This document shows, piece by piece, positions 4,020 through 53,400 of a DNA stretch of 64,000 nt. Below the pieces are notes generated by a model. The model searched no databases and was not told the origin of the DNA. It worked only from the letters and a program-made list of their open reading frames with translations. The translations under genes were made by a program, and so were the position numbers. Origin of the DNA: Zootoca vivipara (lineage: Eukaryota). Every line of letters begins with the position of its first letter. Position 1 is the stretch's first letter. The stretch lies in NCBI RefSeq assembly GCF_963506605.1, contig NC_083276.1, forward strand, positions 48,732,001 through 48,796,000, read 5' to 3'.

Positions 4020-4615
4020 GAACCAATATCAAACCTCATCCAGTGCCCCAATTCTGACTCCCCTACTCGCCGGTAAGCTCGGTTAAGAGCCCCGGACAGA
4101 GTGGGGTGGTAGTCGAAGGGGCCATTTTGAGCGTCACTGTCACCCTCGCGGCTGCAAAGCTTCGTTGCCGGCGGTGGAGAGCAGAGGATTCTCCCACAGC
4201 AAAAGACATTGAAATTGGGAAACCGTGAGTAAAGGATTTAAAAAGTTTAAGATTTGATGAAATTGGCCACGGAAGAGGCTTAAAAAGGGAGCCGACCTCT
4301 TCCAATTGAGGGACTGAGATACAGTAACCTGATCCCTTGCCGGGAAGGAGAAAAGAAGTATCTAATTTACTAACAATTGGCCTAAAAGAAGCCCCCCCCC
4401 CCCCGGAAGCCAGATCCAGGCCCCTGGAAGGAACAGCGATCAGACTTTGAGTTGTGGAATTGCTAAAAAGAAGAAGTGGGGGCATGGCTGAAAGAAAGTT
4501 AAAGGAAAAGATGCCCAGATTGGGAAATAAAATGGAGTGCAATGTTTTGGAATAAGACTGCCACCATTTCCTGTGTTGCAATTTGCTGTTTTCCCATGAG
4601 ACTGGAATAGATAAG

Positions 4616-5032
4616 ATGGCTCTAGACTCAACATCTGTAAAAGACCAGCTGTGGCAAAAGATTCTCTCAGAACTCTTTGACATTAAAAAGGAACGGAAGG
4701 AACTGAATTTGTACACCAAGCAGCTGAGGGAATATAATAAAGATTCAAGAGAGGTGAATGGAGAAAACTGCATGGAAAATAGGACTGGAATAGAGACTAT
4801 AAAATTGGACATAGAGGACAAAGAGGAATTACCAACACTGGACATTTCTAAGGTGCAAGAAGAAGCTGTACAATTTGAAGAGAAGGATGAGGAAGAATGG
4901 CAGAACGTTCCACAACTGGGAGATGTGGAACAGAAGAAGGATTGGATGCAAGAACTTTTCAAGGAAGAACCAGGGTGGGCCTTTGCCCCCCCAGTGAGAG
5001 AGGGGGGGAGAGGGCAAACTCTGGGAAGCTAG
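4616..5032 (+). CDS. Retroelement-encoded 138-aa acidic coiled-coil protein (ORF1-N-terminus-like)
   Basis: Intact ORF MALDSTSVKDQLWQKILSELFDIKKERKELNLYTKQL... with heptad hydrophobic pattern; strong AAGATGG context. Confidence 0.5.
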   Translation: MALDSTSVKDQLWQKILSELFDIKKERKELNLYTKQLREYNKDSREVNGENCMENRTGIETIKLDIEDKEELPTLDISKVQEEAVQFEEKDEEEWQNVPQLGDVEQKKDWMQELFKEEPGWAFAPPVREGGRGQTLGS

Positions 5033-5486
5033 AAAGAGAGGTATAGGTGGATGGGGGAGGAAACAGCAGAAGTGGGGCAAAAATGTTTTGTGGAAATTTT
5101 GGGAAAAGGTGGGAGGGGGTTAATAGATTATAACGGATGGTAGGGATGGATATAATGGAAGGCCCAATACTGGTATGGCATATGGACTTCGTTGGTAACT
5201 CCTGGGGAATCTGGATCTGGGGCTAGGGGCGGAAATATATTATTATGTTTAAAACAATATAATGATGTAAGGGTTAATACTAGAATGAAGAATCATTGTT
5301 AGTAAAAAATTATAGGCTAAGGGAATATCTTAAAAGAAGGAATAAAGGGTAATTAGAGAGAATTGGATTGTAATATGAGATTAAAGGTGATATTAATAGA
5401 ATATGGATTATAGCTGAATATAGAAACAAAGGATTGAGAGAGTAATGCTTTAAGATGTGTTAAATAACAATGAATACTGTCTAAAT

Positions 5487-6179
5487 CAGTGATGGGCAAC
5501 CTTTTGACCTTGGTTTGTCAAAATTCGCCAAAAAACCGAGCATAACTTGGGTAGTGTGTCACTTCGAGAAAAAAACCATAATTTCGTGATATTTATAGTT
5601 TAAATAACAAAAATGTATAATTGTAATATATAACTGTTTTTAATAAACCAAAAACTAATTATTTAACCAAACCAAACACCAAACTCCTTATTTATCACAA
5701 AGTGCCCCGAGTTGTTGAGCTTTTTGGGGGGAGCTGCTGACCAAAGTTTTGGAGGTTTTTTTGGGGGGTACAAAAGTTGCTTTGCTTTTTTGGGGGGGGG
5801 TGCCCCAAAGCTGCTGCGCTTTTTGGGGGGGGAAGAGAACAGAAATAAATGATGAATAATACCTTCGCTGGAACTAACACGCAGCACCGGCATAATCTGC
5901 CAAAGTGCCAAAAAAACCCAGCACAGAACGGGTTAAAAAACAAACGCTGTTACACCCAATCATAGTCTGCCAAAGCGCCAGAAGAAAACAGCACAGAAAG
6001 GGATAAGAACACCAATCTCTTGCTACCAGCAACAACAACAACAACAACAAAAAGGATCCGGAGAACAAATGGGGGGGGGGGACAACAACAACAGCGTGAA
6101 TGGGCCGATGGGGCGCGTGCCAGCAGTGAGGGCTCTGCGTGTCACGTCTGACACACGTGTCATAGGTTCGCCATCACTG
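5487..6179. mobile_element. Non-autonomous hAT-Charlie element, OposCharlie1 (OC1)-like
   Basis: TIRs CAGTGATGGGCAACC / GGTTCGCCATCACTG; perfect 8-bp TSD GTCTAAAT (5479-5486, 6180-6187). Confidence 0.85.
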
Positions 6180-7679
6180 GTCTAAATAATACTGCAATAG
6201 GGACTCAAGGTGGGGGGGGTGTCAAGGGAGTCCAAAGTGTTATGACCAAGATATAAGTTAGAATTTTTGCTTTTTGTATTTTTTCTTTTTTCTGTTTTGT
6301 TTTTTGTATTCTTTGTATGCTTTTTGTTTATGAAAATCTCCAATATATCAAGTTTGACCCAATGCTGTGGTTCAGTTCGCACAACAGATGTTTGCAGGTG
6401 CAATGGAATTCCCCCTTCCTTTCCCCTGCAGCCCCCTCATGCACCCTCAACATGTATCCCAGAGGGATGTGGGTCCTTCCAAAACAGATAGGGCAGTATT
6501 CAGAGGAAGGAGAGGGAAGGAAGCGCCAGTGTGCAAATGTAATCCACTTGTGCAGCGTTGAGATACAACCCAAATCCCATACTGACACACCAATATCTAG
6601 AGGGCCTTGATGTTGTGTATTTCAAACCTGCAGTCAAAACAGTATTGAGCCCATAATCCTTTTCATTTTCATCTTTCCCAGCTACTGTATCATTTTCAGG
6701 TTTGGGGTGTCCAACAGGCTGAATCTCTTCTTCATCTCATTAGGAAGAGAGACAATAAAAGTGCCACAGTATCTTAACTCTACCCTTCTTTCCATAAAGA
6801 ATCCAAAACAGGTCTAAGCACACACTAATCCATGGAGTTTGATTCATTGCATCTAAGCCAGTTTTCTGGAAATTTTACCAAATTGGGTACTACCTAGAGG
6901 TGCGTGTGAGCAACCTCTAGAACATCGTTCTTGTTGACAAAGGATCGCTGAAACATCAAAAATGGCCCTGGACTTGTCATTTAAGTTCACTCCAGTAATT
7001 CTTGACAATCTGCAAAATGTTGCAAAGGCACAAATCCATTGTACGGAACATGGCAAATGCTCCCCATTATCTAGAAAAGGGGAAGGTGTTTGGGAAGATT
7101 CACCCCCCTCTCCCTCCCATGCAAAGTGGAAAGCACTCTCTAGCTGATTAGCTCCACATGTGCTGAACTCCAGCTGCTCAAATCTCTGCAGTGAGCTTTG
7201 GCACAACTTCTGTTGTCTCTCAGAAATCCCCCGTACTGCTGCAACAGCAGCTTTTTTAAACAAATGCAATTTAACTAGAACAAAAGCTTAAAACATCTGG
7301 ATTCCAAACATTGTTCTGGGTTCAAACCCTCAAGAAATGAAACTTTCCATATAATATATCTGAGGTCAAATTAAATCTATTGTTTGCAGCCCTCCACCCA
7401 CTTATTCTCCCCCTTCTTTTATCACACCCAGTTCTCTATATTACATCCTATGCTGAGGAATGGGGAACCTGTGGGCCTCCTGGTGTTTCTGGACCACAAT
7501 TCCCATCATCCCTGACTACTGGCCATGTTGGCTGGGGCTGGTGAGAACTGGGGGTCTAACAACATCCAGAAGGCCACAGCCTCCCCATTCCTGTCCTAAG
7601 CCCTGCAACGATCGATACCTTGCTTCTGTAGAGTGTTTAGCTCACTTTTGGTGTTAAATGTTTATTCTCAATAGAGGAG

Positions 7680-9287: not shown

Positions 9288-17776
<8,489 letters not shown>

Positions 17777-18094
17777 CTTCTCCTCCTCAGGGTCCGGAGC
17801 CGGAGCCTCACAAGGACACCGAGCGGACTCGTAAGGCGCACGCGCGCCATCGAGCCCTCTCTCCTATTGGTCCGACGTAGCAGAAAGCGCTGCGTCCCGC
17901 TCACGCAAGCTTCCACCACCGGAAAACCAATCCGCGCGAGGGGGCGGGACGAAATGATCCGGAAATCAGAGGCGCGCGCGCGGACCGGGTGATTGGCCAG
18001 CTTCCGGGAGCGGTTGAAAGAGCGGCGTCGGAAAGTGCAGCCCCTTCTGGTGTCCCCCTGTGCCATTCCCGGTGCGAAGTTCCGAGCCGGCGGG

Positions 18095-18113
18095 ATGAAG
18101 GGAGGAGCCTCAA
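18095..18113 (+). CDS. KBTBD4: KBTBD4 coding exon 1 (MKGGAS)
   Basis: Matches the MKGG N-terminus of the long mammalian isoform; gtaag donor; in frame with exon 2. Confidence 0.8.
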
Positions 18114-21100
18114 GTAAGAGCTGCTGCCCGCTGAGCGAGGCCGGGGCGCTTCTCTCCTCGGGGCTCAGCCCTGCCCGTTGCGGGGGCGGGAAGGTTCGGT
18201 TGCCGTCCGCCAGGGGGTGGGGCAGCGCACACGGACGCCGGGAGGGGCCGGAGCCGGAGCCGCCTTCCAACGAGGCGCTTCAGGGCCCGGCTCGAGAGCG
18301 ATAGGCCCTTCGCGCCCGGGCCCCGTGAAGGGTTGAGCTCGCTCGGGAGCTCGGCGCCGGCCAACTCGGTGCAGAATCGCCCTGGATCTCTGTTCAAGTT
18401 CTGTTCGCACCAGTGTCACGATGTTGGGACTGGGCGCCTCCGCTCAGTGAGCAAAAGCATCGAGAGACTGTTTCCAGATACCATCCCTGGAAGCTCATGG
18501 AGCCCTAGCTGCTTTAAAGCAGATGCCGAAACAACCGCAGGCAATTTTAGACTGAGGCTGCATTGCTATAGAGCAGGCACGTCCAACAGGTAGATCATGA
18601 TCTACCGGTAGATCACTGGACATCTGTGGTAGATCACTGGCTCCCCCCAAAGAAGCTCAACAACTTTGGCTCCCCTAAAAATGCTCAACATTTTAGCCAT
18701 TTAGCCCCCCAAAAACAGGGCTTTCCTCCCGCCTCAGAAAAGCTCAACAACTCTGACCTGAACCCCTAAAAATGGGCCTTCCTAATAAAATCTCAGCAAC
18801 TTTGATCTGAACCCCCCAAGAGGGGGTAGATCACTGCCAGTTTTTAACTCTGTGAGTAGACACAGACTGTTCGGACTTGACCACCCCTGCTATAGAGTAC
18901 ATTGCTTGGTCTAGGTCTCATTGAACTCTAGGCATCTCGCTTCTGAGTAGCCTCACAAAGAATCGCACTGCCTTGTTTTTGATCTGTCCAATGGTCAGCT
19001 TTCCCCTTCCATCAGCCTCCGTGGTCTTTAGGGCCTCTCTGTGCACTATAGAAACCAAAGGTACCTTTTTAAAGATGGCGTATGCACGGCAGTCAAACCC
19101 AACCCATCACAGACTTCCCGATGTCGGTGTACAACTTGTATATGTCTTTCAAAATGCACATTTGTCATTCTTCATATATTGTGCTTGTAATGCGCTCACC
19201 CTATAGGCAGAGCACAAAAGGCTTTGGAGCTTTTTAGTGTTCTGGTGATATCTGTACAGTATTTTGGGGATAGTTTTAAAAACAACATAAACTTCCTGCA
19301 ATTTATGGGAACAAGGAACCCTTGTTAAGAGTAATTCTCTTCAGATTCCTTTGTTCCATTGACTCATACTGGGGTATTTTCCTAGTATGCTCCTCATACT
19401 CTACAAAGTCTTGTAATCTGTGATTACCCACCATTTAAGGATTGGTCTAACTTTTGAGTTCTTGTAAATATGGTGCACTATGTCACATACTACATTAAAG
19501 ACTTGACCCTGTTATGGTGTTACTTGGATACAAAACACTGGTACGAGGAAGTAACTATTAGTGTAGGCTACTGTACACAATCTTTTGGCTGCTATTTCTA
19601 CATGATAGGAAATGTGTTCCTTATCTGTAGCATTTCTTTTTCCTTTCCTTTTTTAGATTTGTTTGCTTTAGTTGAGATATCAGTACAGCACAAGTCTGCG
19701 ATAAAAGAATCTCCAATGTCTGTTGTATTTCAGATTACTGGAGGTCAGATCTAAGCGGCAACATGGACTCACTGGACGAGACTGGAGGTTCCTCAACAGA
19801 GGAAACTGGAAATTCCTTAACTGAGAACTACTTTGTAAATTACACTTTCACTGACCGTTCTCATTCAGGCCGTGTGGCCCAAGGAATTATGAAGTTGTGC
19901 TTAGAGGATGAGCTCTTTGCCGATGTCACCATCTCTGTAGAAGGCAAAGAATTCCAACTGCACCGGCTAGTTCTCTCAGCTCAGAGCTGCTTCTTTCGTT
20001 CAATGTTCACTTCCAATCTGAAGGAGGCACATAACCGGGTGATTGAGTTACAAGATGTTAGTGAGAGTGTCTTTCAGCTCCTTGTGGACTACATTTATTA
20101 TGGAACTGTAAAGTTGAGGGCAGAAGATTTGCAGGAGACTTACGAAGTAGCAGATATGTACCAACTAACCGCCCTCTTTGAGGAATGTTCCCGTTTCTTG
20201 GCTCGAACAGTGCAAATGAAAAACTGTTTGCAAATTATGTGGTTGGCTGATCAGCACAGTGATGTGGAGCTCTATACGGCTGCCAAGCACTGTGCCAAGT
20301 CATACTTATCACAACTTCAAGAAACTGAGGAGTTTCTGCACCTTCCTCTCCGCCTCCTGACAGATATTGTCTCAGGTAAGTAGAATGGTTACTGAGACTT
20401 GTGGTTACTAAGGCCTTTCTGAGAGATTTGGATTAGACCCACGGCATTTCAGTTTCAGACCTAGTTTTGAGTCAGATGCCTTTGATTGCCCTGGTACATG
20501 GCTCTAAAGCGGAAAAGAGGAGCACCTTCCTGTTGAATCTGCTGCACCTCTCAGAGGCTTTTGGTTCAATAACTTGTGGTATTCCAGGTTATTTAGTGAA
20601 GATGAGGCTTGGAAGCACTTTTTAAACAGATTCTAGTCTTTCCTGGAGTAACAATTCTTTAAGGTGGTACTGGGTGCCGCAGCCTCATCTCTTTTGCTTA
20701 TGAAGTTCCACTGGGCTATGTTCTGTTCCCCCCTTCCCCAATTGTAATTCGTTTTAAACATTTCTATTCCCATGTTGTTTAGTATCTACATGAAACTACT
20801 AGGAGTGGTGATAGGGAGATTTGGAGGTCTATGCAATCAGTGTGCAGATTACATCCTACTTACTCCTCACATTCCAGGGAAACTAGCAGTTTTAATAGAA
20901 ATCATTAATAGAAATGGGCTGGATGGCAGCTAGTAAATTGAAGTTTCATCTAAATAATAGTAGTATATCCAACCTAGAACTAGGCAGTATCCACCAAAGT
21001 AGAACCACTAGTGATCTTAAAACCCTATATGGTTTGGCAACAGGATAAATTCCTCCTGCATTAGCTTACCCATGCACTCAAATGCTCTGCAGAGGCTTTT

Positions 21101-24100
21101 TGTTTCTGCATTCATTTGGTTGGAATGAAGGGGAAGGTTTTTTGTTGGAACTCCCTGCCTAAGGATGTTGATATTGTCGTCTCCTTGACCATCTGCTGCA
21201 GTGCAAAGCTCTTTCCATTTAAGAGGGCTTTTGGCCTTTAGTAGCTGGACTATACTACTATACTACTGGTATGTAATCTTTCTGTCTCATATAATTGCTT
21301 TATTGGCTGTCTTGTTATTTTTGTTGGACTTCGTTGTAGTTTATGGGTTATCTGCCTGTGGGGGTTAGCAGAGTTCTAGGCATTGACTTCTGTTGGTTCA
21401 AGCAGGGCAAACCCATAATCACCAATGCCAAGCAAGCATCTTGCTGTGAAGCCACTAGGCCTAGAATGCAAGATTGCTTGCTATGTCTCGCCTATCATAT
21501 TTACACTTTCAGAAACCCCACAGCAGCGAGGTTATGAAAGCTGTTTATAACACACAGCTCTAATTACCCCTCCCATCAATCTTTGGATTAAGACCTAGCA
21601 ACTCTGATTGGTGGTTGTGTACTTTTCTGCTGTGAGGAGAAAACGGACCCTTAGAGCTCTGCTCTGTTATCCTCTTCTTGAGGGAGCTCTTTTTTCAGTC
21701 TGCTATCTCTAGGAATAGCAGAAATCCATTTTGCTTGCTGTTGAAAGAACCACCTACATCTTGATTCATGTTACCTAGGAGTATGTTTTGATAAGCTGTA
21801 AAATGTAGTTCAAAGTGTTTTCTAGCTGTTTAAGAGGTTTTGGTACAGTCAAGCAATATATTACATTTTGTCAAAATAAAATAGCTCCTTCTGGAGATAG
21901 ATTTCACAGTAGCCATGTGTTCTTCAATAATGCTGTATACTGTTAAATCTCAAATTCTTAAGTTTAATGTGTTCAACCCAGATAACCACAAATACCTTTT
22001 TGTTACAAATGTTACAAAAATATTTCACTTCATGCATCTAATACACAGCTCTTAAGAAGTAAGGGTGTACCCCTTTTCTTCTGCTCTTTATTTTTACTAT
22101 CGCAAAATTGTTCTGTAGGAAGCATTTGTGGACAGAATGCAGTGAACTTGTTCTGTCAGCGCAAGAATTTCTGCTTGTGCAACAGAATTCTCCTCTCCCC
22201 CATGCGTACCCTGCACCCTCCCCAAATCAGCTGCAGAGGGCTAGAGAAAAACCCAGAACAGATTTAGGGGGCACACAGTGGACGTTCCATTGCACAAGTG
22301 GAATTCCTAGCACTGACAAAACAAGTTACTTGCATCCTGCCCTTTTTTTTTCTTCCTTTTTTTGTCAGGCCTGTGGAAACATGTCAGGGGGAGCCAACAT
22401 TACCTAATATGTTTGGCTGGGGGAGGGCGAATTGTATGCAGCTCAGGGCGGTCATGCAAGAAGACAAATCATATGTCAAGATATCTTTGTGAGGAATTGA
22501 ATAAATATGAAATTTGTTAATCGCAGCTCTGGTAGAATTAGCATTGAAAGGGAAATCCCCAGATCCACCAATAGTTAGGATAAATGTCCAGTTTCCTATG
22601 GCAACCACTTCTGGCTCTCTTGTCATTTAAAGGTCCAACCACCTCCTATCTGGTTTTCTGCTATTAATGTCGTTACAGAACTTCTTGCTGTTGGTATTTC
22701 TTTTTAGCAATGTGCTCCTCAAATTCTCCCCCCCCCCCAATCACTTTTCGTCCACTTGCATTTCTTTTGCCGAAGTTTGTGTTCCTTTTTGCTCTCCTAA
22801 TTTGAACAAGGCTTCCATTTTATAACACTTGCATGTTAACCAAGTGGGCATCCTCTTGGCTCTGGTGGGACCTTTCTTAATCTGAGCATCTAATATTGTG
22901 ATTTTAAAAAACTCCCAAGGAGTAGCATCCTCCTTTCCATGGCAGCAAAGGAGCCGTCATCCTTGGAGCGTGACAAGAGCTATCATGTTCCTGAAGGCCT
23001 TGTCCACCAAACTCTCTTCCTCTCTCAGCTTCTCTTGGTCAGCCACTTTGGCCCCAAGGGAATGAATCTGTTCCCTGAGAGCTGGGAGCTCATTGCATCA
23101 AGGACAAACCCATTTTTTTCCACCACATAGATCAGGGGTCAGCAAAAATTTTCAGCAGGGGGCCGGTCCACTATCCCTCAGACCTTGTGGGGAGGGGTGG
23201 ACTATATTTTGAGAAAAAATATGAACGAATTCCTATGCCCCACAAATAACTCAGAGATGCATTTTAAATAAAAGGACACATTCTACTCATGTAAAAACAC
23301 GCTGATTCCTGGGAATTTGTTAGGTCAGAGGGTGGAGGAACAGTGTGCTGAAGAACCTAGAAGGGACTGGACATTACTTCCTGAATAATTACGTACCAGA
23401 CTGAAATTGATTTAGAGACAGAAGGCCTCTTGACATACAACTCAAATATTCTATGCAACTATCACTTCCGGTCTGGCAGCCATTGGCATCGGCGGGGGAT
23501 TTTTGATCTCCGAAAGTCCCCAGCGACCCAGAGGAGGGGGGAGGTCGCGCGGGCACCGCGACCCCCCGGAGAACCCCCGGATTGAGCTTTCCGGGTGTGT
23601 GGGACCCAGCTGAGCCCCGTAAGTCCCGTTTCGCCACCCGGATTGCGCCTCTTGAGGTGCGCCGAGAGCCGGTTGAGCGGGATGGAGCCTTGGGAAGTCT
23701 GCTACCTCTGGAACGCGAAGCTCCATGCCGAAGCCACTTTGAGCGCCAGATGCCCCCGTTTTGATTAAAGATTGGACTTGTAAGTAAAATTTCTTTGGAA
23801 AAAAAATTAGAGAAGATTTGGTCCGGGGAAGGGAATTTAAAAAGGAAACGGAGGTCGTTCCCCCCCCCCTTATTGAGATAAGAGAGCAGCCACCAGACCT
23901 GCAGCCGCAACGCTGGAACGGACTGGAAAATCCGCTAAAAAATTTAAGTTGGACCCCCTCCCGGTGGAGCAGAGCCAAGGGAGGGAGAGGAAATCTCTAT
24001 TTTGGATCTCTGCATAACTTTTATGAAGTTCTGGAACAAGCCCTTCTAAACCGAGGGCGAGACCCTGGGAACAAAGACCAGTCGCCATTGTGATTTCACC

Positions 24101-27100
24101 GGTAAGGAACTTTGTATTAAAAAGGAACTCTTGGTTTAATAAGTCGGGTACGGATTTAACAAGATTTTGCGAAGTAAATGAATTTAAACAGAGGACTGTG
24201 AAATTGCGTTGTTGAAAAGAATTGGATAAAGGGACTAAAGTAAATCTGGGAAGTAACTGTGCACCATCTTTGGGAAAATAACATGCACCTGCCATTGTAA
24301 TATGAGAACACAATAGAATCGAATAGACAAAACAATGAGTCTCCAGCTGGACAAGGACAAAATGAAACTTTTGCTACAACTTGTATACGAACTAAGAGAG
24401 GATGTGTATGAATACACGAAACAGATACAAAATCTTAAAGAGGAGATACAACTGTTTCCCTTAAAGGATACGTTAGACTTACAGGAAGAAAACAAAGAAG
24501 AGCCGAAAACAGAGGAACCCGAGCAACCTGTGAGAGAGGCTGCAAAGGACATGGACTCTACTCAGACGGCATTAGCCCAAGAGACCCAGAATGCTGGACT
24601 CTCAGTGAGAGAGGGAGCCCAGAATCTGGGCTTGGATAACCAGAGAAAGTTTGTAAATCTGATCGAGTGGTGGCTTTGGGGGGGTAAAGAGGTGATAGGG
24701 AGGAAAGAGAGCTGGAGAAAGAGATTGGATCAACACAAAGAGGAGTGGAGAGAGGGAGGGGGCATGGTGTGGGTAAGAGATGGAGTGGGGTGAAAAAATA
24801 ATGAATTTTTAATATGGGACGGATTAAATGGTTGGAAACTGGATTGTTGCAAGGAACTGGTCGAGGTTTACAGGGAATTGCCTATTAGGGGAAGAAGGGG
24901 GAGACAGAGAAAGTAACTGAGAAATTTTGTGTGTTTTTCTTTTTTTCCTTTGAAAGTAATCAATGGGGAATATTTTTTAGGGGAAAGTATAGGCTAAGGG
25001 GTTTAGTTTAGATATTTGATTAAGTATTATTGAGGGAATATTGTAAGAATGGGAATATAAATGATTATATGATGAATTAGATTATTGATATAAGATTAAT
25101 TTGAAAGCAAGGAAACTGCTAAAGTTGGGTTTAAAATGAACTCGGTAAGGGAGGAACGGGGAGGTCACAGATATGTTAAGCAATATTAGATGTAAACAAA
25201 GAATCTTGTATGGTTTTTTTTCTTTTTTACTGTGTTTTTCTTTTTAGTATTTTTCCATTTTTTCTTTTTTTCTCTTTCTTTTTTCTTTTATGTGGTTGTG
25301 CCTTTTTTGTATCGTATTTAGGATATTGCACGATGTGATGATTTGGAAAATGTATAAGCTGAAAATTCAATAAAAATTATATTAAAAAAAAACAAATATT
25401 CTATGCAACTATGTACTCCAGGTGGTTTTTAATACTCAGTTACAAAGGTCATCATCAGTTATGATTTGTAACATGATAGTTATATTACAAAGTTTATTAA
25501 AAATTTGAACTGAGACAATACATTGCTTAGTCTTAAATATTTATTTATTCAATTTATATCCCATCCTTCCTCCCAAAAAAGCCCAGGATGGCACATGATG
25601 TATGTAGTTCTGGCATTAGCAACAGCTAATGCCAGAACTCCGAGCTACAGGAAACTCAGAAAAAAGCAAGCTTAATGGCCAGTATTAGTACTGAATAAAG
25701 TTTAAGATTTATCTGTTGTTTGGCCTACTGACCCACTTTTTCAACTGAAATCCCTATTAACTTCTGCTGGTTTCTACAGCCACTGATCTTATTACTTGTA
25801 ATGGGATTAACCAAGAACCAGCTTTCCCACAGAAGCAAAGGCCTGCTAGAGCAGGAAGCGGGGTACTTAATTGAATCAGGCAGTGGAGCTGTATTTGACT
25901 GGACGTACACCATTGTATTGAAAGCACTGAATATTTAAAATTATTTCCAATATCCCTGAGCAATGCAGTAGCTTAAAACATGTCAGGATTTGGAACGTGG
26001 TTAAAAGTTTCTTTGTACGCAATACCGTCATCAAAAAATATACTAAATGTTCTGGTGAATAGCTTTTCTGAAATGACAACAAAAATCATGTCTTTTGCAG
26101 CATCACTTCTTAAATGTGAGACATATGACAAGAAATTTTTTTTAAAAAAAAATCCCAAAATTAAGCAGGACAAAATGAAGGCCTAGCTGTTTAACTGTGG
26201 CAAGCAGAGAATGTAGTCTGGTCCTATTAATAATGTTGAGGCTATGTTTACCAGTTAACAAATTCATTAAGCGGATAGCCTTGGGCAGGAAATATGTTTG
26301 CTGCTTCTGTAGAATAGGAATGCTAACATGCAAAGGCTCCTGCTCTTGTTTATACCAGCTAAACCTGGTATGTATTGGGGGGAAAGAGAATACTGTACTT
26401 GCTATGCCCATGGCATGAAAATTTTATAGTTTAAACATGTTTTTTTTATTTGCAACCATACAGATGGGGTTCCATGTTCACAGAATCCAGCAGCTGCCAT
26501 AGAAACCTGGATTGGCTTCAATAAAGAAGAGCGTGCAGGTTTCTCAGAGATACTGCGATCAAGTTTAAAGGTACATGACAAAGCAGTCTACTCAGTGCTT
26601 CAACCTGCCTCCCTTCACTGTAATCAGTGTAGAAAGGTTTCCATAGGTAGAAACGTGGGCTGCCCTTGACACTAGAGTGATGTAAGCAGTGCCAATTAGT
26701 CTGATGTGAAAATAGAATTGTATAGAATAGAACTTCAGGGTCCTCCTACCTTGGCTCCTTTTGCCAAAGCACCTTCCTGCCAAAAGACAACACAGCAGAA
26801 TCAAACGTATTCCTCCTGTAGTGCTTCAAAAATGTGAAAACAGGTGGTCATTGCTGCCCTACAGATGTCAACTCAAGGGGCATTAGTGCTACCGGTAGCA
26901 GCAGTCAAAGCACTCCTGGCAGTGTGATCCAGAAGCCACATAGCACTTAGCTATGCATGTCCATATGCATCAAAACAGAGTAGTTGAGGAGACATTTTTC
27001 TTGCAAAGTGCTTGGCTAAATGTTTAGTGCTTGGCTAAAACAGAATCAGACTGTCTCAACTCTTTTGCTCATCCCAGGTCAATTCACACTAGTCTATGAA

Positions 27101-29930
27101 CATCTAGACAGTGATGCTCCTTTTCCTTAGGACCTAGCCAAAAATGATGGTGATTAACTTCCTGAGCCCTGTGAAAAATAGAATTCCTTTGAGGAATGAA
27201 TGTAGGGTGAGGGCCATTGAATCTGGATGGAAGATACAGAGTGCTTTCCAATATGACAGGGCTCTCCGCTCTGAAATCCTTACAGCAAATAATAAATAAT
27301 AATAAATAAATTTTTATTTATACCCCGCCCTCCCCAGTCAAAAACCGGGCTCAGGGCGGCTGACACCAACAGAATTACAATAAAACATAAAAACAATTAA
27401 TTAAAATACAGATTAAAATACAGTATTAAAATTTAAAATGCAGCCTCATTTCAAGTAGGCCATAAATCCAAGCCATGAGGGAGGAAAACACAGGGGTCAG
27501 GCTGAGTCTAACCCAAAGGCCAGGCGGAACAGCTCTGTCTTGCAGGCCCTGCGGAAAGATGACAAATCCCGCAGGGCCCTGGTCTCCTGGGAAAGAGCGT
27601 TCCACCAGGTTGGGGCCAGTACTGAAAAGGCCCTGGCTCTAGTAGAGGCCAATCTAGCCATCTTATGACTCGGGATCTCCAGAATATTATTATTTGTGGA
27701 CCTTAAGGCCCTCCGTGGGGCATACCAAAGGCAATAACTACCAAGAAAATCACCTTATGTCTCAGAGACATTTAAGGTTATGGCTATAAAGACTTGAAAT
27801 GTGATTTTGCTAGGGCTAAAAAAACTTGTTTAGGTTCCAGGTGGAAAAGCGATATACCAGGGGAAGTTTCAAGTAACTCCTTATAACACAAGGATGTGAG
27901 GATATGCAACCCTTGCACCCCTGAGACAGAAGAGAGAGCTGCCCCTTGCTTTTTGGAGTATTATGTGTCAATCCAGACCATCCCAGAGGAAAGTGAACAC
28001 CCACTTTGATGTTTACATGCAATGTGTCCTCATCTTTTCCTACACCACCTCACAAAGGCCTTCCACATTATCTCACAGGTGCAATGTGCACAAATTTTAT
28101 ATTACTGTAGTTTAGAAAGGTAATGACTGCTCTGTGGTCAGAGTCTTTATGTTCTAGACCCCTCCTCTTTCAGTTGTTGAACAGGAAGGTACAAGGTCTG
28201 GGTGGAGAAAGTGTCCTTGGGATCTCTCTTCTACCAAAAGGATCCCAGTCCCATCAGATTGGAAAACCAAGCCATGCTGGACCAGAAGGGAGACACAAAC
28301 AATTTCACCCCCTCTGCAAATAACCTTTTGGATCGGACATCCCCAAACTGCGGCCCTCCATATGTTTTGGCCTACAATTCCCATGATCCCTAGTTATCAG
28401 AACCAGTGGTCGGGGATGATGGGAATTGTAGTCCAAAACATCTGGAGGGCCGAAGTTTGGGGATGCCTGCTTTAGGTCATGGTTGTGGGTGGAAATGTTT
28501 ATAACCTGCTCACCTTGGAAGTTGGCTGAGGACACAAACAGATTATCTATATATGGATACCCTTCTCAGCTGCTGGAAAAGACTCAATTGAAATGCTAGT
28601 TTAAACTTGCTAGCCTCATAATTCAGTAACTGAACATGTGTTTCTTAACTGTTTATCTAGTTTTCATCTTGCCCGTAATATAGGAAGTTGTCTATAATGA
28701 TTGACAGCAAGTCTCGAAAATTTCAGACAAAAGTCTTTTCCAGCTCTACTTGGGGATGTTAGGGATTGAACCAGAGGCTTTCTGCCAGCCAAGCATTGGC
28801 CTGGAAAGCTATATACATTATGGTTATAAAGTGCAATGAAAAAAAATAAAAGGGTCACAAGAGACTTCAGTCCCAGCATGTCGGCTATCAGTGGCCTAAT
28901 ATATTGTGGTAATTGTGGACTAGTTTACTTAATAATTTGAGCTGTGAAACCCCAAGCTAATTTGCTGTAGGTATTTCTTTGCACCTATCATTGGCATGCC
29001 TCCTCTTGACTGAATTTCTGCACATAGACCTATGCACAACTTTTAATGAAATTTTGTTTTATTGTTTAGGAAATTGGAGAGAACGTTCATATCTACCTGA
29101 TTGGAAAGGAGTCATCCCGTACACATTCCCTTGCTGTCTCACTGCATTGTGCAGATGATGACTCCATCAGTGTTAGTGGTCAGAACAGTTTGTGTCACCA
29201 AATCACTGCCGCTTGCAAGCATGGTAGTGACCTCTATGTTGTTGGAGGATCCATTCCACGACGCATGTGGAAATGCAACAACACCACGATAGACTGGGAA
29301 TGGTGTGCCCCCCTGCCCCGTGACAGGCTACAACACACTCTGGTTTCTGTGCCCAGCAAGGATGCGATCTATTCACTGGGGGGCAAGACACTGCAGGATA
29401 TCCTCTCAAATGCCATCATATACTACAGAGTAAGAGACAATGTATGGACAGAGACTAGCCAGCTGGAAGTTGCAGTGTCTGGGGCTACGGGTGTAAATCT
29501 CAACGGTGTCATTTATTTGTTAGGCGGGGAGGAGAATGACCTTGATTTCTTTACCAAGCCCTCTCGGCTTATCCAGTGTTATGATACAAATACAGAGAAG
29601 TGTCATGTAAAGCCTTACGTGTTACCCTTTGCAGGGCGCATGCATGCTGCTGTGCACAAGGACCTGGTGTTCATTGTAGCCGAGGGGGATTCGCTGCTGT
29701 GCTATAACCCTCTGTTGGATAGCTTCACGCGGCTCTGCTTGCCAGATGCCTGGAGCTCAGTACCATCTCTTTGGAAAATTGCTAGTTGTAATGGCAACAT
29801 CTACATCTTCCGGGATCGTTACAAAAAGGGAGATGCCAACACCTTCAAACTCAATCCAGCCACTTCTGTGGTGACTGTCAGCAGTGGCCTCAAGGTGCTA
29901 CTCACAAATTTGCAGTTTGTGTTGGCATGA
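18095..29930 (+). CDS. KBTBD4: Kelch repeat and BTB domain-containing protein 4 (CUL3 adaptor), 4 coding exons, 542 aa
   Basis: Exons 18095-18113, 19734-20375, 26464-26570, 29070-29930 total 1629 nt. BTB motif FADVTISVEGKEFQLHRLVLSAQSCFF, Kelch region GGSIPRRMWKC, C-terminus KVLLTNLQFVLA*. Confidence 0.97.
18574..18889 (+). mobile_element. hAT MITE family copy 3
   Basis: Same TIRs; TSD CTATAGAG both sides. Confidence 0.9.
19734..20375 (+). CDS. KBTBD4: KBTBD4 exon 2 (BTB/BACK); second in-frame ATG at 19763
   Basis: tttcag acceptor, gtaag donor, BTB domain. Confidence 0.97.
22410..22920 (-). mobile_element. Degenerate L1 endonuclease-region fragment
   Basis: Minus-strand translation includes FILTIGGSGDF..N, resembling the APE GDFN motif. 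Confidence 0.3.
23133..23310 (+). mobile_element. Truncated hAT element (left end only)
   Basis: Starts CAGGGGTCAGCAAA, a hAT-Charlie-type TIR; no matching right end seen. Confidence 0.55.
23463..25392 (+). mobile_element. Full-length ~1.9 kb non-autonomous L1-like (HAL1-like) retroelement, copy B
   Basis: 20-bp TSD CAAATATTCTATGCAACTAT (23443-23462, 25393-25412); CpG-rich 5' end starting CACTTCCGG; single ORF 24335-24793; AATAAA 25369-25374; poly(A) 25384-25392; no RT or EN coding. Confidence 0.9.
24335..24793 (+). CDS. Retroelement-encoded 152-aa acidic coiled-coil protein (ORF1-N-terminus-like)
   Basis: Intact ORF MSLQLDKDKMKLLLQLVYELREDVYEYTKQIQNLKEEIQ... with heptad pattern and Trp/Gly-rich C-terminus WVRDGVG*. 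Confidence 0.55.
   Translation: MSLQLDKDKMKLLLQLVYELREDVYEYTKQIQNLKEEIQLFPLKDTLDLQEENKEEPKTEEPEQPVREAAKDMDSTQTALAQETQNAGLSVREGAQNLGLDNQRKFVNLIEWWLWGGKEVIGRKESWRKRLDQHKEEWREGGGMVWVRDGVG
26464..26570 (+). CDS. KBTBD4: KBTBD4 exon 3
   Basis: (D)GVPCSQNPAAAIETWIGFNKEERAGFSEILRSSLK. Confidence 0.95.
27289..27725 (-). mobile_element. L2 LINE 3' fragment
   Basis: (AAT)n tail, ataccccgccctcccc...gggctcagggcggct 3' motif, then L2 ORF2 end. Confidence 0.7.
29070..29930 (+). CDS. KBTBD4: KBTBD4 exon 4 (Kelch propeller, to stop)
   Basis: EIGENVHIYLIGKESSRTHSL...LQFVLA*. Confidence 0.98.
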   Translation, partial: EIGENVHIYLIGKESSRTHSLAVSLHCADDDSISVSGQNSLCHQITAACKHGSDLYVVGGSIPRRMWKCNNTTIDWEWCAPLPRDRLQHTLVSVPSKDAIYSLGGKTLQDILSNAIIYYRVRDNVWTETSQLEVAVSGATGVNLNGVIYLLGGEENDLDFFTKPSRLIQCYDTNTEKCHVKPYVLPFAGRMHAAVHKDLVFIVAEGDSLLCYNPLLDSFTRLCLPDAWSSVPSLWKIASCNGNIYIFRDRYKKGDANTFKLNPATSVVTVSSGLKVLLTNLQFVLA

Positions 29931-34000: not shown

Positions 34001-34860
34001 CCCCACTTGAGTTGCATCAAAGCTGGAGAAAGGCTTGCTCAGGAACCTTTTCAGGGCTCACTAGTCAGCCCTTCACGTGAAACAACAGAAGCCAGGATAC
34101 CTTGTAGCTTGTGTGCCCCGCAAAGAATAGCCCCAGCTGTTTGCTGGGTTCGAATCAGGATGCGCTTGCAAACCTTGAACTGCTGGCAAATTTCAGCCTC
34201 CATCTCCTTCCATGTTGACAATCCTACACCGGCTACCCTCTTGTTGATGGGGTCTACCTTACGAATTTTTGCTGGTAGATCTTTCAACAGCAGAAATCAA
34301 AGAGGTAAAGGCTTGCCCATAGGATTTACCGAGCGTGTTCAGCGCAACGCTGCACGTGCCGCGTTCGAGAGTAAGCCCGCGCCGAGTTAACATAGCAGTG
34401 GGCGCAGGGCTACAGGCTGAGTTTCTAAAGGGAAGGATGCAGCTAAAGAAGCAGAAACCTCGTGCGCCGTGGGAGCTATTCCGCGGTACCTCGCAGCTCC
34501 CCGGCCGAGTGACCCGCAGAACCAGCCCTGGGGAGAAGGTGAGTAAACGGTGCCACGCGCTGAGCCGCAGCTCCCGCCCAGCAGTTGAAAGAGCACCCGC
34601 GGGTGAGACGCCTGCTCCGCCCGGCCCGGCCCTCCCGTTACCTGGCGACTCCGTCCCCGCAGAGGCAGCGCCCCCAGCAGCACGGAGCGGTCGACGCGGC
34701 TGAACCAGGGCCGCTGCGAGCCGGGCAGCCACTCCCGCACCAGCGTGTACAGCAAGGTCGGGTAGAACAGGACCCGCGCGGCTCCGGGACCCAACGTGCT
34801 CAGCACCATTGCCAGGCCGCTGGCCTCCTCGGGGCGGGCCGGGCCGTTAGGGCAGCTCAT
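30832..34860 (-). CDS. PTPMT1: Phosphatidylglycerophosphatase and protein-tyrosine phosphatase 1 (mitochondrial), 4 exons
   Basis: Exons 34860(or 34809)-34642, 32742-32662, 31984-31793, 31047-30832, all phase 0. Motifs ARVLFYPTLLY, NVRGVVTMNEEYET, STVDLTGVP and the CX5R loop VHCKAGRFRSAT. Confidence 0.96.
31793..31984 (-). CDS. PTPMT1: PTPMT1 exon 3 (catalytic loop)
   Basis: EWAEMGVEQLRLSTVDLTGVP...VHCKAGRFRSATMVAAYLIQ. Confidence 0.97.
32662..32742 (-). CDS. PTPMT1: PTPMT1 exon 2
   Basis: LVEEQNVRGVVTMNEEYETRFLCYSSE. Confidence 0.96.
33085..33830 (-). mobile_element. Old L2 LINE fragment
   Basis: Degenerate L2 RT C-terminal-type sequence (…tagtagtctaaacaggaggttaccagtgc…) and AT-rich tail. 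Confidence 0.5.
34642..34860 (-). CDS. PTPMT1: PTPMT1 exon 1 (alternative in-frame ATG at 34809)
   Basis: ...GAARVLFYPTLLYTLVRE...LLGALPLRGRSRQ, gtaac donor. Confidence 0.9.
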
Positions 34861-35109
34861 TGCGCTCGACGGAGAGGGGGCCAGGCCGCAGACATCTCGG
34901 CGGCGCTGACGAGCCCGCGCGTCCAGGCGCAGCTAGAACTGTCGCGCGGTGGGCGGGGAAGAGCAGCGAAGAGAGCAGCGAGCGTGCTCATTCGCGAACG
35001 GAGGGGCGTGCGCGCGCGTTGGAGGGGGGGGGGGACGAGTCCGCTCGTTCTCTCGCGCGCCTTTCTCTCGTTGGTGCGCCTCCTGCCCTGGGATGGTCTT
35101 TCCCGGAAG

Positions 35110-50400: not shown

Positions 50401-53400
50401 CAGGGATGAAAATTTGTGTTTCTTCAGTTGTCATTGAACTCCATCTTCCATCAGCACCAGCTATCATGGCCAGTGGTCAGGAATGCTGGGAGATGTAGTG
50501 CAGCAGCAGCTGGAGGGTTGCAGATTCCCTAGTCCTTATCTAGAGAAACCAATAGGCAAGGGAAAGCTTTGGGAGTTTTTTTGGTGGTCTGTGGTTTAGA
50601 TGCCTAATTCTTTGATACTGAGATCTGAAACTCAACTGCCTAAACAATAAGTCCATGGTGGAAGCAACATCTAGTAGGGGCAATCAGTATGCTCATACAA
50701 AATTCCACAGAATGGAAGAACCTGGAAGTCTCAATAAATATATTATTTACAGTCTATGTTCTAGTATTCTGAATAGTGCTTCTTCCTTTGTCTCAAATTC
50801 ACAGATTATCAATAGGATTAACAAACAGTCAGTTGACTGACTGTTGTTTGACTGTGATCCAGTAAAGCTAAGAACGCCACTGTGGGTTTTGTTATTTTAA
50901 ATTTTGCAACTGTACACTGGCCCTGGTATTCTATGGTAAAAGTCAAAAGACAAGAACTGTTCAGTGAATTATTCCAATCAGTAGAAATCTTACTTGACGT
51001 GGTTAAAAGTTATAATAATTCATTATTATTATTTAAAAATTCAATGTTTTACAATAACAATCTGTTTTTGTAATTAATGTAAGTATTAAATGTTTTGATG
51101 ATGACAGTTAATTACTAGGTTGAATCTGTGCCTTCTGATATTAAAGCAAGGTTGCTATTTTTCTTGACTTCTTGTTCCGTTTTGAAAAAATATGTCACAA
51201 TGTCTGTGGATTATGAAATACTGGTTTAAATAGGACAACATTGAATGCCTATAAGTGGAATGATCAAATGGGAAATTCAAATTCCTTTGTACAATACCCT
51301 GCTCATTTAAACCTGAAACTCAGCAATCTACCATTGTAGCACAATTACCCAAAAGTGCTGACTACTGAGGCTTGGGGCTAGGGGAGCAGGAAGGAAGCTA
51401 CTCATCTAGCAACAAATCTGAGTGGTGCAGTACAGTGAATGGATGTTGCTGTTTCCTTCTCGTCCCCCCAAAATATGCTGCCTTTAAGCTTGAAAGGTGA
51501 AACACGTTTGAATGTGCACCTCATAGTGCAGGGGTGGGTATCTTGTGCTTAGCAGGCCAAGTTTGGCTTGCTGCTGGTCCAGTTTGATTCATGAGGCCGT
51601 TTCCACCAAACCCTGCCTGCCTGCCCATCTAATCAACATCAGTTGATAAGCAGGAGGACAGGATTTTATCCTGCATTGGCTGTGCCACTCTGCTGTCTGA
51701 GGGAACAGGATCATGCTGCCTAGGCAACAGGATTTAATATCAACTCTTTAGATGAAATCACATGACTGACAGGTGGAGAACCCTTGCTGGAGCAGTGTTA
51801 AAATGAGGGTGGAGGTGCTTCAGAGAGCAGTTGGTCAACCTCTTCAAAGAACAAAGGGTCTTAATCTTTGCCCAGCAGCTGATGGGTGAGCCTTGGCTGC
51901 ACAAACCTCTTCCTGGCTCCCCACCTCTGCCATAGGGGCATATGTGTTCCCCATCTTCCTTTTTTCTCTAACTGACGCTGAATTGATCTTCACATGTCAT
52001 TGCAGTGTGTCGTCACTTCTGAATATGAGTGCTTTTCAGAGTTTCAGCTGGTCTTACCCTGTTTCTCATATTTTAAGACATATCCATAAAATAAGCCATA
52101 GCAGGATTTTTAAGCATTCAAGGAATATAAGCCATACCCCGAAAATAAGACATAGTGATAGGCGTAGCAGCAATGCCGGCCACGGCAGAAGGAGGAGGAA
52201 AAAAATAAGACATCCCTTGAAAATAAGCCATAGTGTGTTTTTTTGAGGAAAAAATAAATATAAGACATGTCTTATAATATGAGAAACACGGTATCTTCCA
52301 TGCAGAGTATTATACCCAAACCAAACCATTGGTCTATTTTTAGGATTCCCATTCAGGAATTTTATTTTTATGGTTTTTTAATTTTTTTAAAAAAGTTATA
52401 TATATCTGCAGACATTGGGTTCTCCCAAGCAGGTTGACACCTCCCTTTTGTTTCTCAGTGACCCTGTTTTGGCTCCCATTTTTGTTGGCACTCAGCACTT
52501 TAGTTTGCTGTTAGAGGGAATGATGATATTTTTTCATCTTTATACTTACTACTAAATTCATTAGTTTTAATTACACCAACTTTTAGCTCAGTTTTCCTTC
52601 TCCAATAAACCATTATTTACCCTTTATACAAGACTATAATACATTCTATTTCTAAGATGCTAACGTTTCTGGGAGAGAAAACAGCAAATTCATCTGAGAC
52701 ATTTGAAGGCAATCAAGTCTTTGGAGAAGTGTCTCTTCTCTCTTCCCACCACATGCCTGGTTTTCAGTGGACAGAATATGTTCTCTCAATATCTCAGATA
52801 AGCAACAATTTTGAGTTTTAATTATTATCTTTCTAATACATTTGAAGAAGGGTTGGTTGGGACAGAGTCTAGGAGGACACTTACCATATGTTTCTCATTG
52901 ACTCATGCAGCTCAAAGAAAATGAATGGCACACTAGACCACCCTGACCAACCGGACATTGATGCCATCAAGATGTTTGTTGGCCAGGTCCCACGGAGTTG
53001 GTCTGAAAAAGATCTGCGAGATCTGTTTGAACAGTATGGTGCTGTCTATGAAATAAATGTCCTGCGGGACAGGAGCCAAAATCCTCCTCAGAGCAAAGGT
53101 GAGAGCTCTCTCTTTTCTTTTTACTGCAGGTTTTGGTCCAAGATCATTATGTGTCTTATTGACACTTATTACTTTGAGAAAGCATGTATTTGTGTTGTTT
53201 TGATATCACAATCCATGCATGATCTTCATATTACTGTATTTGGTATGGTAGCAAGAAAAGCAGTTAGTAGGAAGGTTAGTTTAGATGTCTGTTGTTCTTC
53301 ACATGCAGATGCAAACTTGGGCATGTCACTACATGTTGACAGTTTTATCGTTGAGCTGTACCTGCATAGTTTGCTTATTTTATAGGTTTTCTCCTGAAAA

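Follow-up and report, generated by a model that had tools for sequence, protein, structure and literature searches.

Structure of a Short Coding Retroelement

We analyzed a 64,000-nt stretch of the Zootoca vivipara genome (contig NC_083276.1, positions 48,732,001 to 48,796,000; hereafter the window, to which all positions refer), in which a retroelement with a single open reading frame (ORF) occupies positions 23463..25392 of the plus strand. The family to which it belongs is large and has moved recently; its ORF is under purifying selection, and it is very probably copied by the enzyme of autonomous L1 elements. The 1930 bp of the element are enclosed by two direct repeats of 20 bp (23443..23462 and 25393..25412, 100% identical), which form its 5' and 3' target-site duplications (TSDs). 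The 5' untranslated region (UTR; 23463..24334) begins with a CpG-rich head starting CACTTCCGG, presumed to serve as an internal RNA polymerase II (Pol II) promoter; in its first 300 bp, the GC content is 61–67% and the observed/expected ratio of CpG is 0.8–0.9. It is followed by one ORF of 152 amino acids (24335..24793) and by a 3' UTR (24794..25392) containing a T-rich tract, an AATAAA signal (25369–25374), and an A9 tail (25384–25392). This architecture had been described in an initial annotation made from the sequence alone, and the perfect TSD, the CpG-rich 5' UTR with its ETS-type start, the intact ORF, and the polyadenylated end were all confirmed.

The same annotation called the 3' UTR L1-type, which holds for the T-rich tract and the type of tail. 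Likeness to the 3' UTRs of local L1s is one of type only (the T-rich tract and the last 33–45 bases), and outside the last 33–60 bases and low-complexity tracts no DNA similarity to local L1 bodies was detected. At the other end, the CACTTCCGG start motif is common to the element and local autonomous L1s, and an anole clade-1 L1 consensus (GACTTCCGGTGN8ATGGCG; PMC5381506) equals the start of the element over its first 9–10 bases.

Splice-donor-like sites are present in the 5' UTR at 23619, 23780, and 24102. The stretch 24102..24213 (plus strand) reads as a GT..AG intron in a sister subfamily and is gone from three other copies. In addition, many family representatives have a donor-like GTRAGT 310–335 nt from the element start, which may belong to a larger intron whose removal would take out most upstream ATGs; none of the copies examined was spliced there.

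A Multicopy and Recently Active Family

A search of the genome (1.44 Gb, 48 contigs) with the DNA of the element returned 52 matches (40 of 332 candidates were scored), with full-length copies ranging from 99% down to 69% identity, and a protein search with the ORF returned 94 (150 of 303 scored). Twenty weaker matches were fetched with their flanks; they had the same layout wherever a TSD could be found, were mostly 1.9–2.0 kb long, and in no case carried ORF2 downstream. A second, decayed member lies within the window itself (approximately 4041..6348, plus strand), its ORF beginning at 4616. This copy, which is interrupted by an insertion at 5487–6179, represents a second group (group B, the first element being of group A), and all 150 scored matches of a search started from it were positive (539 candidates). 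Group B has the same layout at a size of 1.7–2.0 kb, and the two groups are homologous (hhalign probability 95.5%, E value 1.6e-8).

In total, we obtained 57 separate copies in which the 5' motif is intact and which have their own TSD; the TSDs measure 11–22 nt and the copies 1481–2126 bp, mostly 1.7–2.0 kb. The prediction that the element would prove to be a multicopy unit of about 1.9 kb with individual TSDs, rather than a single-copy sequence, is thus correct. The target site, a pyrimidine followed by an A-rich run, was the same in 48 of the 57 copies and in all ten local L1s with a TSD, and 5'-truncated copies carrying TSDs are also present. In a contig from another sequencing run labeled as the same species (run X1), position 23442 is joined directly to 25393, with 1950 bases skipped and a single TSD copy left. 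The insertion is therefore polymorphic within the species label, and the family has been recently active.

Spliced copies were also found. Two copies, L011 and L012, match L008 at 98.8% identity except for the exact loss of 132 nt, a stretch with GT..AG ends and a T-tract. This loss suggests that the RNA intermediate was a spliced Pol II transcript. The same 132-nt stretch is missing from L009, whose nearest unspliced relative has no AG there. Considering the CpG-rich head and the spliced copies, the 5' end probably acts as an internal promoter.

The family has no reverse transcriptase (RT) of its own, as the initial annotation had stated, and intact autonomous L1s coexist with it in the genome. 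Many L1 families are intact, with ORF2 frames of 1245–1289 amino acids and the start GACTTCCGG; the 19 L1 loci sampled (L129–L147) come from a search with 5386 endonuclease candidates, of which 150 were scored. Because of the TSDs, the L1-like target sites, the truncated and spliced copies, and the presence of intact L1s, the family is very likely to be mobilized by L1 ORF2p. In a search for an autonomous partner with a common 3' end, 15 matches were restricted to the 3' part of the element, and not one of these was positioned behind an L1 ORF2. Among 40 loci picked by the RNA hairpins described below, seven had an ORF2-like match elsewhere within 6 kb, on the opposite strand or distant; at L275, an ORF2-like match lies on the same strand about 2.7 kb downstream.

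Two further observations concern the distribution of the family. In one group A copy (L096, G000:C14:42866000-42875999), an inserted sequence of about 6 kb separates the two parts; it has an open frame of 1386 codons and looks like a long terminal repeat retrotransposon. A sequencing run of a second organism (X2) contains 5% of the words of the element, and a relative may thus exist in a second species.

Purifying Selection on the Reading Frame

The encoded protein begins with a coiled-coil pattern of 4.5 heptads (residues 10–41; 24362..24457, plus strand), with hydrophobic positions M10-L13-V17-L20-V24-Y27-I31-L34-I38-F41. AlphaFold2 predicted a helix over residues 3–40 (pLDDT 66–83), in agreement with the N-terminal heptad coil proposed initially; values were mostly low elsewhere (mean pLDDT 52.5), and most of the protein is predicted to be disordered.

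For analysis of selection, filtering for the end of the frame and for one internal motif yielded 73 intact ORFs, of which 62 were used after nine partial or odd rows were removed by hand and two without a clear start were left out. The results rest on likelihood models and on pairs of real copies. The overall omega (dN/dS) calculated with IQ-TREE was 0.62 for group A and 0.66 for group B, and a likelihood model gave 0.53 (P = 7e-9) and 0.60 (P = 3e-7) on internal branches and 0.57 and 0.59 on terminal branches. In the other two sense frames, omega on internal branches was 1.12–1.37, and the only off-frame echo of the signal was in the antisense frame that shares third positions (0.67 and 0.80). 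Alignment of DNA only gave 0.55 (A) and 0.63 (B) in frame versus 1.05–1.22 off frame, and protein-guided alignments of the off-frames gave 0.98–1.23; bias from the alignment is excluded, since both types of off-frame control stay around or above 1. By region, the N-terminal coil is the most constrained part of the protein (0.37 in A and 0.43 in B; P = 2e-9 and 1e-12), followed by the linker (0.52, 0.60) and the tail (0.61, 0.59). The ORF is therefore under purifying selection, and the neutral value near 1 that the initial annotation had named as a counterindication was not observed.

Between nearest subfamily pairs, 28 of 39 insertions or deletions in the ORF are multiples of three, versus 134 of 556 in UTR windows, a contrast that is partly forced by the choice of intact ORFs and in which some UTR windows reached into the flanks. 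Subfamilies that share as little as about 20% identity still retain the ORF. On the other hand, the first 40 new loci listed by their hairpins all scored against the family profile, and only four had an intact frame. The ORF is thus maintained in source elements and decays in the copies they give rise to, which suggests that it acts in cis.

These data also bear on another conceivable origin of the element, a single event in which an ordinary L1 lost its interior and a frame stayed open by chance. Such an origin would account for the L1-like ends, but it is contradicted by the many copies of the same size and layout, by an omega below 1 in the frame of the ORF only, and by the lack of DNA similarity to L1 bodies described above, so that its probability is negligible.

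In the young group A copies L003, L005, L009, L012, L013, and L017, frameshifts cluster in a G run at codons ~115–120, after the Trp-rich stretch, which is either a mutation hot spot or an assembly error.

RNA Hairpins within the ORF

The best-kept protein motifs of the ORF, V-R-E-G, are really the loops of two RNA hairpins, which the initial annotation had overlooked. Hairpin 1 (24518..24548, plus strand) has the loop GUGAGAG at 24530–24536, and hairpin 2 (24593..24623, plus strand) has the same loop at 24605–24611; in the decayed group B member, hairpin 2 lies at 4982–5012. Both are situated 25–55 codons behind the coil, their loops have the form N-GUGRGAG-R, and the two loops are 66–78 nt apart. 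The corresponding Val66 and Val91 are coded by GTG in 62/62 and 61/62 ORFs, whereas other valines are coded by GTG in 94 of 233 codons, and the residue after each invariant Val alternates between Arg and Gly through one A/G change. The synonymous rate is 0.74 and 0.46 in the hairpin codons versus about 1.65 elsewhere.

Base pairing was evaluated on 29 subfamily representatives. In hairpin 1, 92.7% of cells are paired and four of six pairs have changed on both sides; in hairpin 2, these values are 91.5% and three of ten. Neither percentage was matched by any of 500 shuffles, a test that is inflated by relatedness, and slid controls reached at most 48% and 63%; for the two measures based on counts of pairs or of types, the hairpins did not surpass the shuffled sequences. 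Hairpin 2 has 22 G-U cells versus eight A-C cells, and this excess favors the sense RNA as the folded strand. Hairpin 1 has six G-U versus 15 A-C cells and is imperfect in several group A subfamilies, including the copy at 23463..25392, where the stem is affected.

GTGRGAG words were flanked by a stem in 120 of 159 cases in the ORFs versus one of 59 in the 19 L1 loci and one other long interspersed element (LINE), and a covariance model found nothing above noise in these L1 and LINE loci. Within the window, only hairpin 2 of both elements received a strong score. In the genome as a whole, the 19-base core of hairpin 2 was counted 265 times, versus zero for its reversed control. Some long subfamilies have a third hairpin. 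Further diverged subfamilies were observed at L066 (minus strand, 4385–5146), L064, L067, L072, L253, and L272; several have three loop motifs and some have other 5' ends, indicating that the radiation extends beyond groups A and B.

A search of Rfam gave no match at the gathering score; the lone match (23 bits vs. 82) lies outside the hairpins. Other roles of the loops were also considered and rejected. None of the 19 listed deletions of at least 60 nt begins at a loop, as would be the case for splice donors, and no CUCUCAC partner for loop pairing was found inside the element in any of the 29 representatives. An iron-responsive element does not fit either: the geometry of the stem suits a loop of 9 nt, not the CAGUGN loop. 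GGAGA, AAGNNG, and UGUG have been described as Lin28-type motifs in terminal loops of small hairpins (PMC3759924). Such motifs are present in some loops of the family; the commonest loop of hairpin 2, AGUGAGAGA (A at the variable place in 24/29), is without them, and a link with Lin28-type binding is a lead only.

The strength of the nucleotide signal raises the question of whether the RNA does all the work. A factor of the host or of L1 might be recruited by the hairpins, with the ORF serving mainly to keep the RNA on ribosomes and stable, its protein being waste that is disposed of through its C-terminus (see below). The most invariant sites are those of the nucleotide level, including the GTG codons, omega for the whole ORF is only moderately low, and most of the protein is predicted to be disordered, all of which would be expected. 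However, the strongest selection is found in the heptad coil, and this cannot be explained by a need for a mere open frame. We therefore regard an exclusively RNA-based function as unlikely.

A Conserved C-Terminal RxxxG Motif

The Trp/Gly-rich tail of the protein finishes in a second feature missed initially, the sequence R-D-G-V-G-stop (24776..24793, plus strand), which conforms to RxxxG and resembles a C-degron. Among 112 long frames picked only for two in-frame loops and not for their end, 73 end in RxxxG, three in KxxxG, and 36 otherwise; most of the 36 other ends are one-off and look like those of frameshifted or prematurely stopped copies. The ORF of the decayed group B copy in the window does not finish in RxxxG. 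By comparison, 43 of 7499 background frames end in RxxxG, and this end was absent from all 12 local L1 ORF1s and all 19 ORF2s. The codons of the motif vary synonymously (AGA or AGG for Arg, all four codons for the final Gly). At the Arg, dN is far below dS; the glycines are partly fixed by the ORF filter, which does not apply to the Arg. Since synonymous change occurs with little amino acid change, RxxxG is conserved at the protein level, unlike the loops, and next to the N-terminal coil it is the part of the frame under the strongest selection.

By its motif, the end is a candidate C-degron of the CRL2 ubiquitin ligase type. KLHDC3 is described as a binder of C-terminal RxxxG with high expression in mouse and human testis (PMC12922316). 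A review of 2020 gives -RG/-KG as the main ends recognized by KLHDC3, and RxxG/RxxxG near the end, with an optimal glycine at -2 or -3, as those taken by APPBP2 (PMC7458402).

Relationship to L1 ORF1p and HAL1

The initial annotation had placed the element next to HAL1, and its layout, a single ORF without ORF2, does agree with that of HAL1. We compared the protein with L1 proteins in several ways. Neither an RRM nor an RT was found by Pfam above the cut-off, consistent with the earlier statement that no RRM is recognizable; Pfam is a weak test here, as Transposase_22 was missed in 12 of 12 local L1 ORF1s. Its L1 ORF1 families matched nothing in the genome, including none of the 12 ORF1s of L129–L147, several of which have a long acidic tail at their end; because true local ORF1s escape these families, Pfam was no longer used as a criterion. 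Profile–profile comparison with 12 local ORF1s and 19 ORF2s gave probabilities of 0.1–0.7% (0.2–0.5% by hhalign for the 12 ORF1s). In the Protein Data Bank (PDB), a profile of local ORF1 found the human ORF1p structures (E value 5e-6), and the profile of the family protein found no ORF1p structure. The lone trace of ORF1p was a weak coil-on-coil match with L141 (E value 0.0009 among 31 sequences). Because homology with ORF1p was undetectable while the positive control worked, we do not assign the family to HAL1. Its link with a parent L1 consists, in the 19 L1 loci, of the shared start motif and tail type only.

Protein relatives were not found beyond the genome for the single protein (25 candidates), nor for a 37-sequence alignment at similar length (3045 candidates) or longer length (7995 scored), and the ESM Atlas gave no usable match. 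These blanks show neither novelty nor a narrow range, as such collections are mostly microbial and seldom contain transposon ORFs.

It might still be that the family is an old HAL1, whose shrunken ORF1p, derived from an extinct or unsampled L1, oligomerizes with itself and, having lost the RRM and the C-terminal domain (CTD), contacts its own hairpins instead. The L1-type start and tail, the N-terminal coil as in ORF1p, the weak L141 match, and a best, non-significant profile alignment in which the coil falls on the beginning of that of ORF1 are in its favor. The profile and PDB comparisons argue against such descent, as does the hairpin, which occurs in none of the 19 L1 loci; moreover, the loop is fixed while the protein tail varies, a better fit to a conserved binder from outside. 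This origin appears slightly less likely to us than a purely RNA-based function.

A physical association with ORF1p is a separate question. A complex of the element coil with two coils of one local L1 ORF1p was predicted with a score of 0.55, versus 0.00 for the best of three controls, with runs agreeing in at least 91% of contacts and a partner pLDDT of at least 74; in the calibration, only 5 of 78 solved complexes passed with a score of 0.60 or less, as did all four of the mismatches that passed (of 180). The co-trimerization suggested by the initial annotation thus gains weak support from the model. The coil may join ORF1p coils, and any amphipathic helix may fit such a coil.

If it does, the protein might act as a Trojan degrader: the coil would enter ORF1p trimers, RxxxG would bring the CRL2 ligase, L1 RNA would be stripped, and ORF2p would be freed for the RNA of the element. 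An anatomy in which a disordered linker connects a coil to a degron-like motif at the opposite end would suit this role, as would the complex model and the high level of KLHDC3 in testis reported in the source cited above. However, a diffusible action benefits all copies equally, so that maintenance of the ORF in each subfamily would be difficult to explain, and many intact autonomous L1 families coexist with the element. We find such a degrader improbable, if less so than the two preceding alternatives.

A Possible Mode of Action

We tentatively favor another explanation, which falls somewhat short of being probable: the RNA of the element is copied by L1 ORF2, and the short protein serves as a short-lived adaptor that attaches this RNA in cis to the L1 particle. 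A further reading, in which the protein is a two-ended adaptor whose coil joins ORF1p trimers and whose RxxxG end calls a germline CRL2 ligase, and the hairpins mark the RNA for reverse transcription, is doubtful, although we rate it above the alternatives discussed so far. In the favored explanation, transcription by Pol II would start from the GACTTCCGG head. The ORF is presumably translated, and the coil, emerging first, would join the coiled coils of L1 ORF1p while the ribosome still holds the element RNA. The hairpins would bind a conserved host or L1 protein and might slow the ribosome or anchor the particle. After release, the RxxxG end would send the protein to a CRL2 ligase of the KLHDC3 or APPBP2 type, and degradation of the freed protein would keep its action on its own RNA and spare the L1 on which it depends. 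L1 ORF2p would then prime on the poly(A) tail. If this is true, an adaptor-plus-degron protein unrelated to the RNA-binding part of ORF1p would represent a new class of coding retro-parasite.

Several points weigh against the cis adaptor. The 5' UTR of the copy at 23463..25392 contains seven upstream ATGs, and omega for the whole ORF (0.5–0.6) is moderate only. In three RNA runs (6% of each was read), coverage of the element is only 0–5x for most of the unit, and no RNA run was among those listed as containing it; this low coverage and the upstream ATGs weigh against every reading based on the protein. The complex model was controlled with unrelated proteins that are not described as coiled coils and used an arbitrarily chosen L1 family, and the score of 0.55 is within the range in which passes are more often wrong than right. 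No parent or partner family was found among the L1 loci sampled, and no binder of the hairpin RNA was found. Finally, the -VG end of the element is not the best described form of the degron, as the review cited above names -RG/-KG for KLHDC3 and a glycine at -2 or -3 for APPBP2.

Comparison with Known Retroelements

HAL1 elements have been described as non-autonomous elements of mammals with a single ORF encoding ORF1p (PMC5753468, PMC8535693, PMC13756887). They resemble the present family in their L1-type ends, internal promoter, and single ORF without ORF2. The family differs in its protein, which has 150–185 amino acids and no detectable RRM or CTD, and in an ORF that carries overlapping RNA hairpins and the conserved RxxxG end. 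Squamate clade-1 L1s (of the anole type, here L129–L147) share with the element the GACTTCCGG start, the T-rich 3' UTR, AATAAA with a short A tail, the length of the TSD, and the target site. However, they are 6.3–7.0 kb long, with an ORF1 of 306–366 amino acids and the long ORF2 frames given above, and have neither the RxxxG end nor the hairpin.

The ORF of HAL1 is reportedly under purifying selection as well (Bao and Jurka in 2010). L1-dependent short interspersed elements (SINEs) and SVA are mobilized in trans through their poly(A) tail, and Alu reaches ribosomes via a protein-bound RNA structure. In contrast to these noncoding elements, the present family keeps a selected protein and yields spliced copies. 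A non-autonomous Pol II RNA has to overcome the preference of L1 for its own RNA. The family splits this cis-preference problem into a coil of 32 residues, two hairpins of 31 nt with a fixed loop, and a C-terminal motif of five residues, and the three conserved parts are separable and can each be mutated alone. Abundant (hundreds of copies in many subfamilies) and polymorphic, it is a live mutagen in this genome, which annotation based on ORF1 and ORF2 would overlook. Among the listings and abstracts of the open literature that were searched, we found no description of such an element and no conserved C-degron on a transposon protein; the family may well stand already in Repbase or Dfam as an unexplained L1-like entry.

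Genomic Neighborhood

The element is flanked on the same strand by a BTB-BACK exon (19763–20380) and a Kelch exon (29070–29927), and it is therefore probably located in an intron of one gene. An RRM exon is present at 52873–53100, and two minus-strand frames lie at about 34390–34932 and 17740–18279. Together, these exons and frames resemble the CELF1-PTPMT1-KBTBD4-NDUFS3 block of other vertebrates. The insertion in the group B member (5487–6179) has terminal inverted repeats (CAGTGATGG..CCATCACTG) and an 8-bp TSD and is, by these features, presumably a hAT-like miniature inverted-repeat transposable element. Just left of the group A element, a repeat at 23130–23312 attracted hundreds of RNA reads that run on into unlike sequence; it is probably a fragment of a common transposon.

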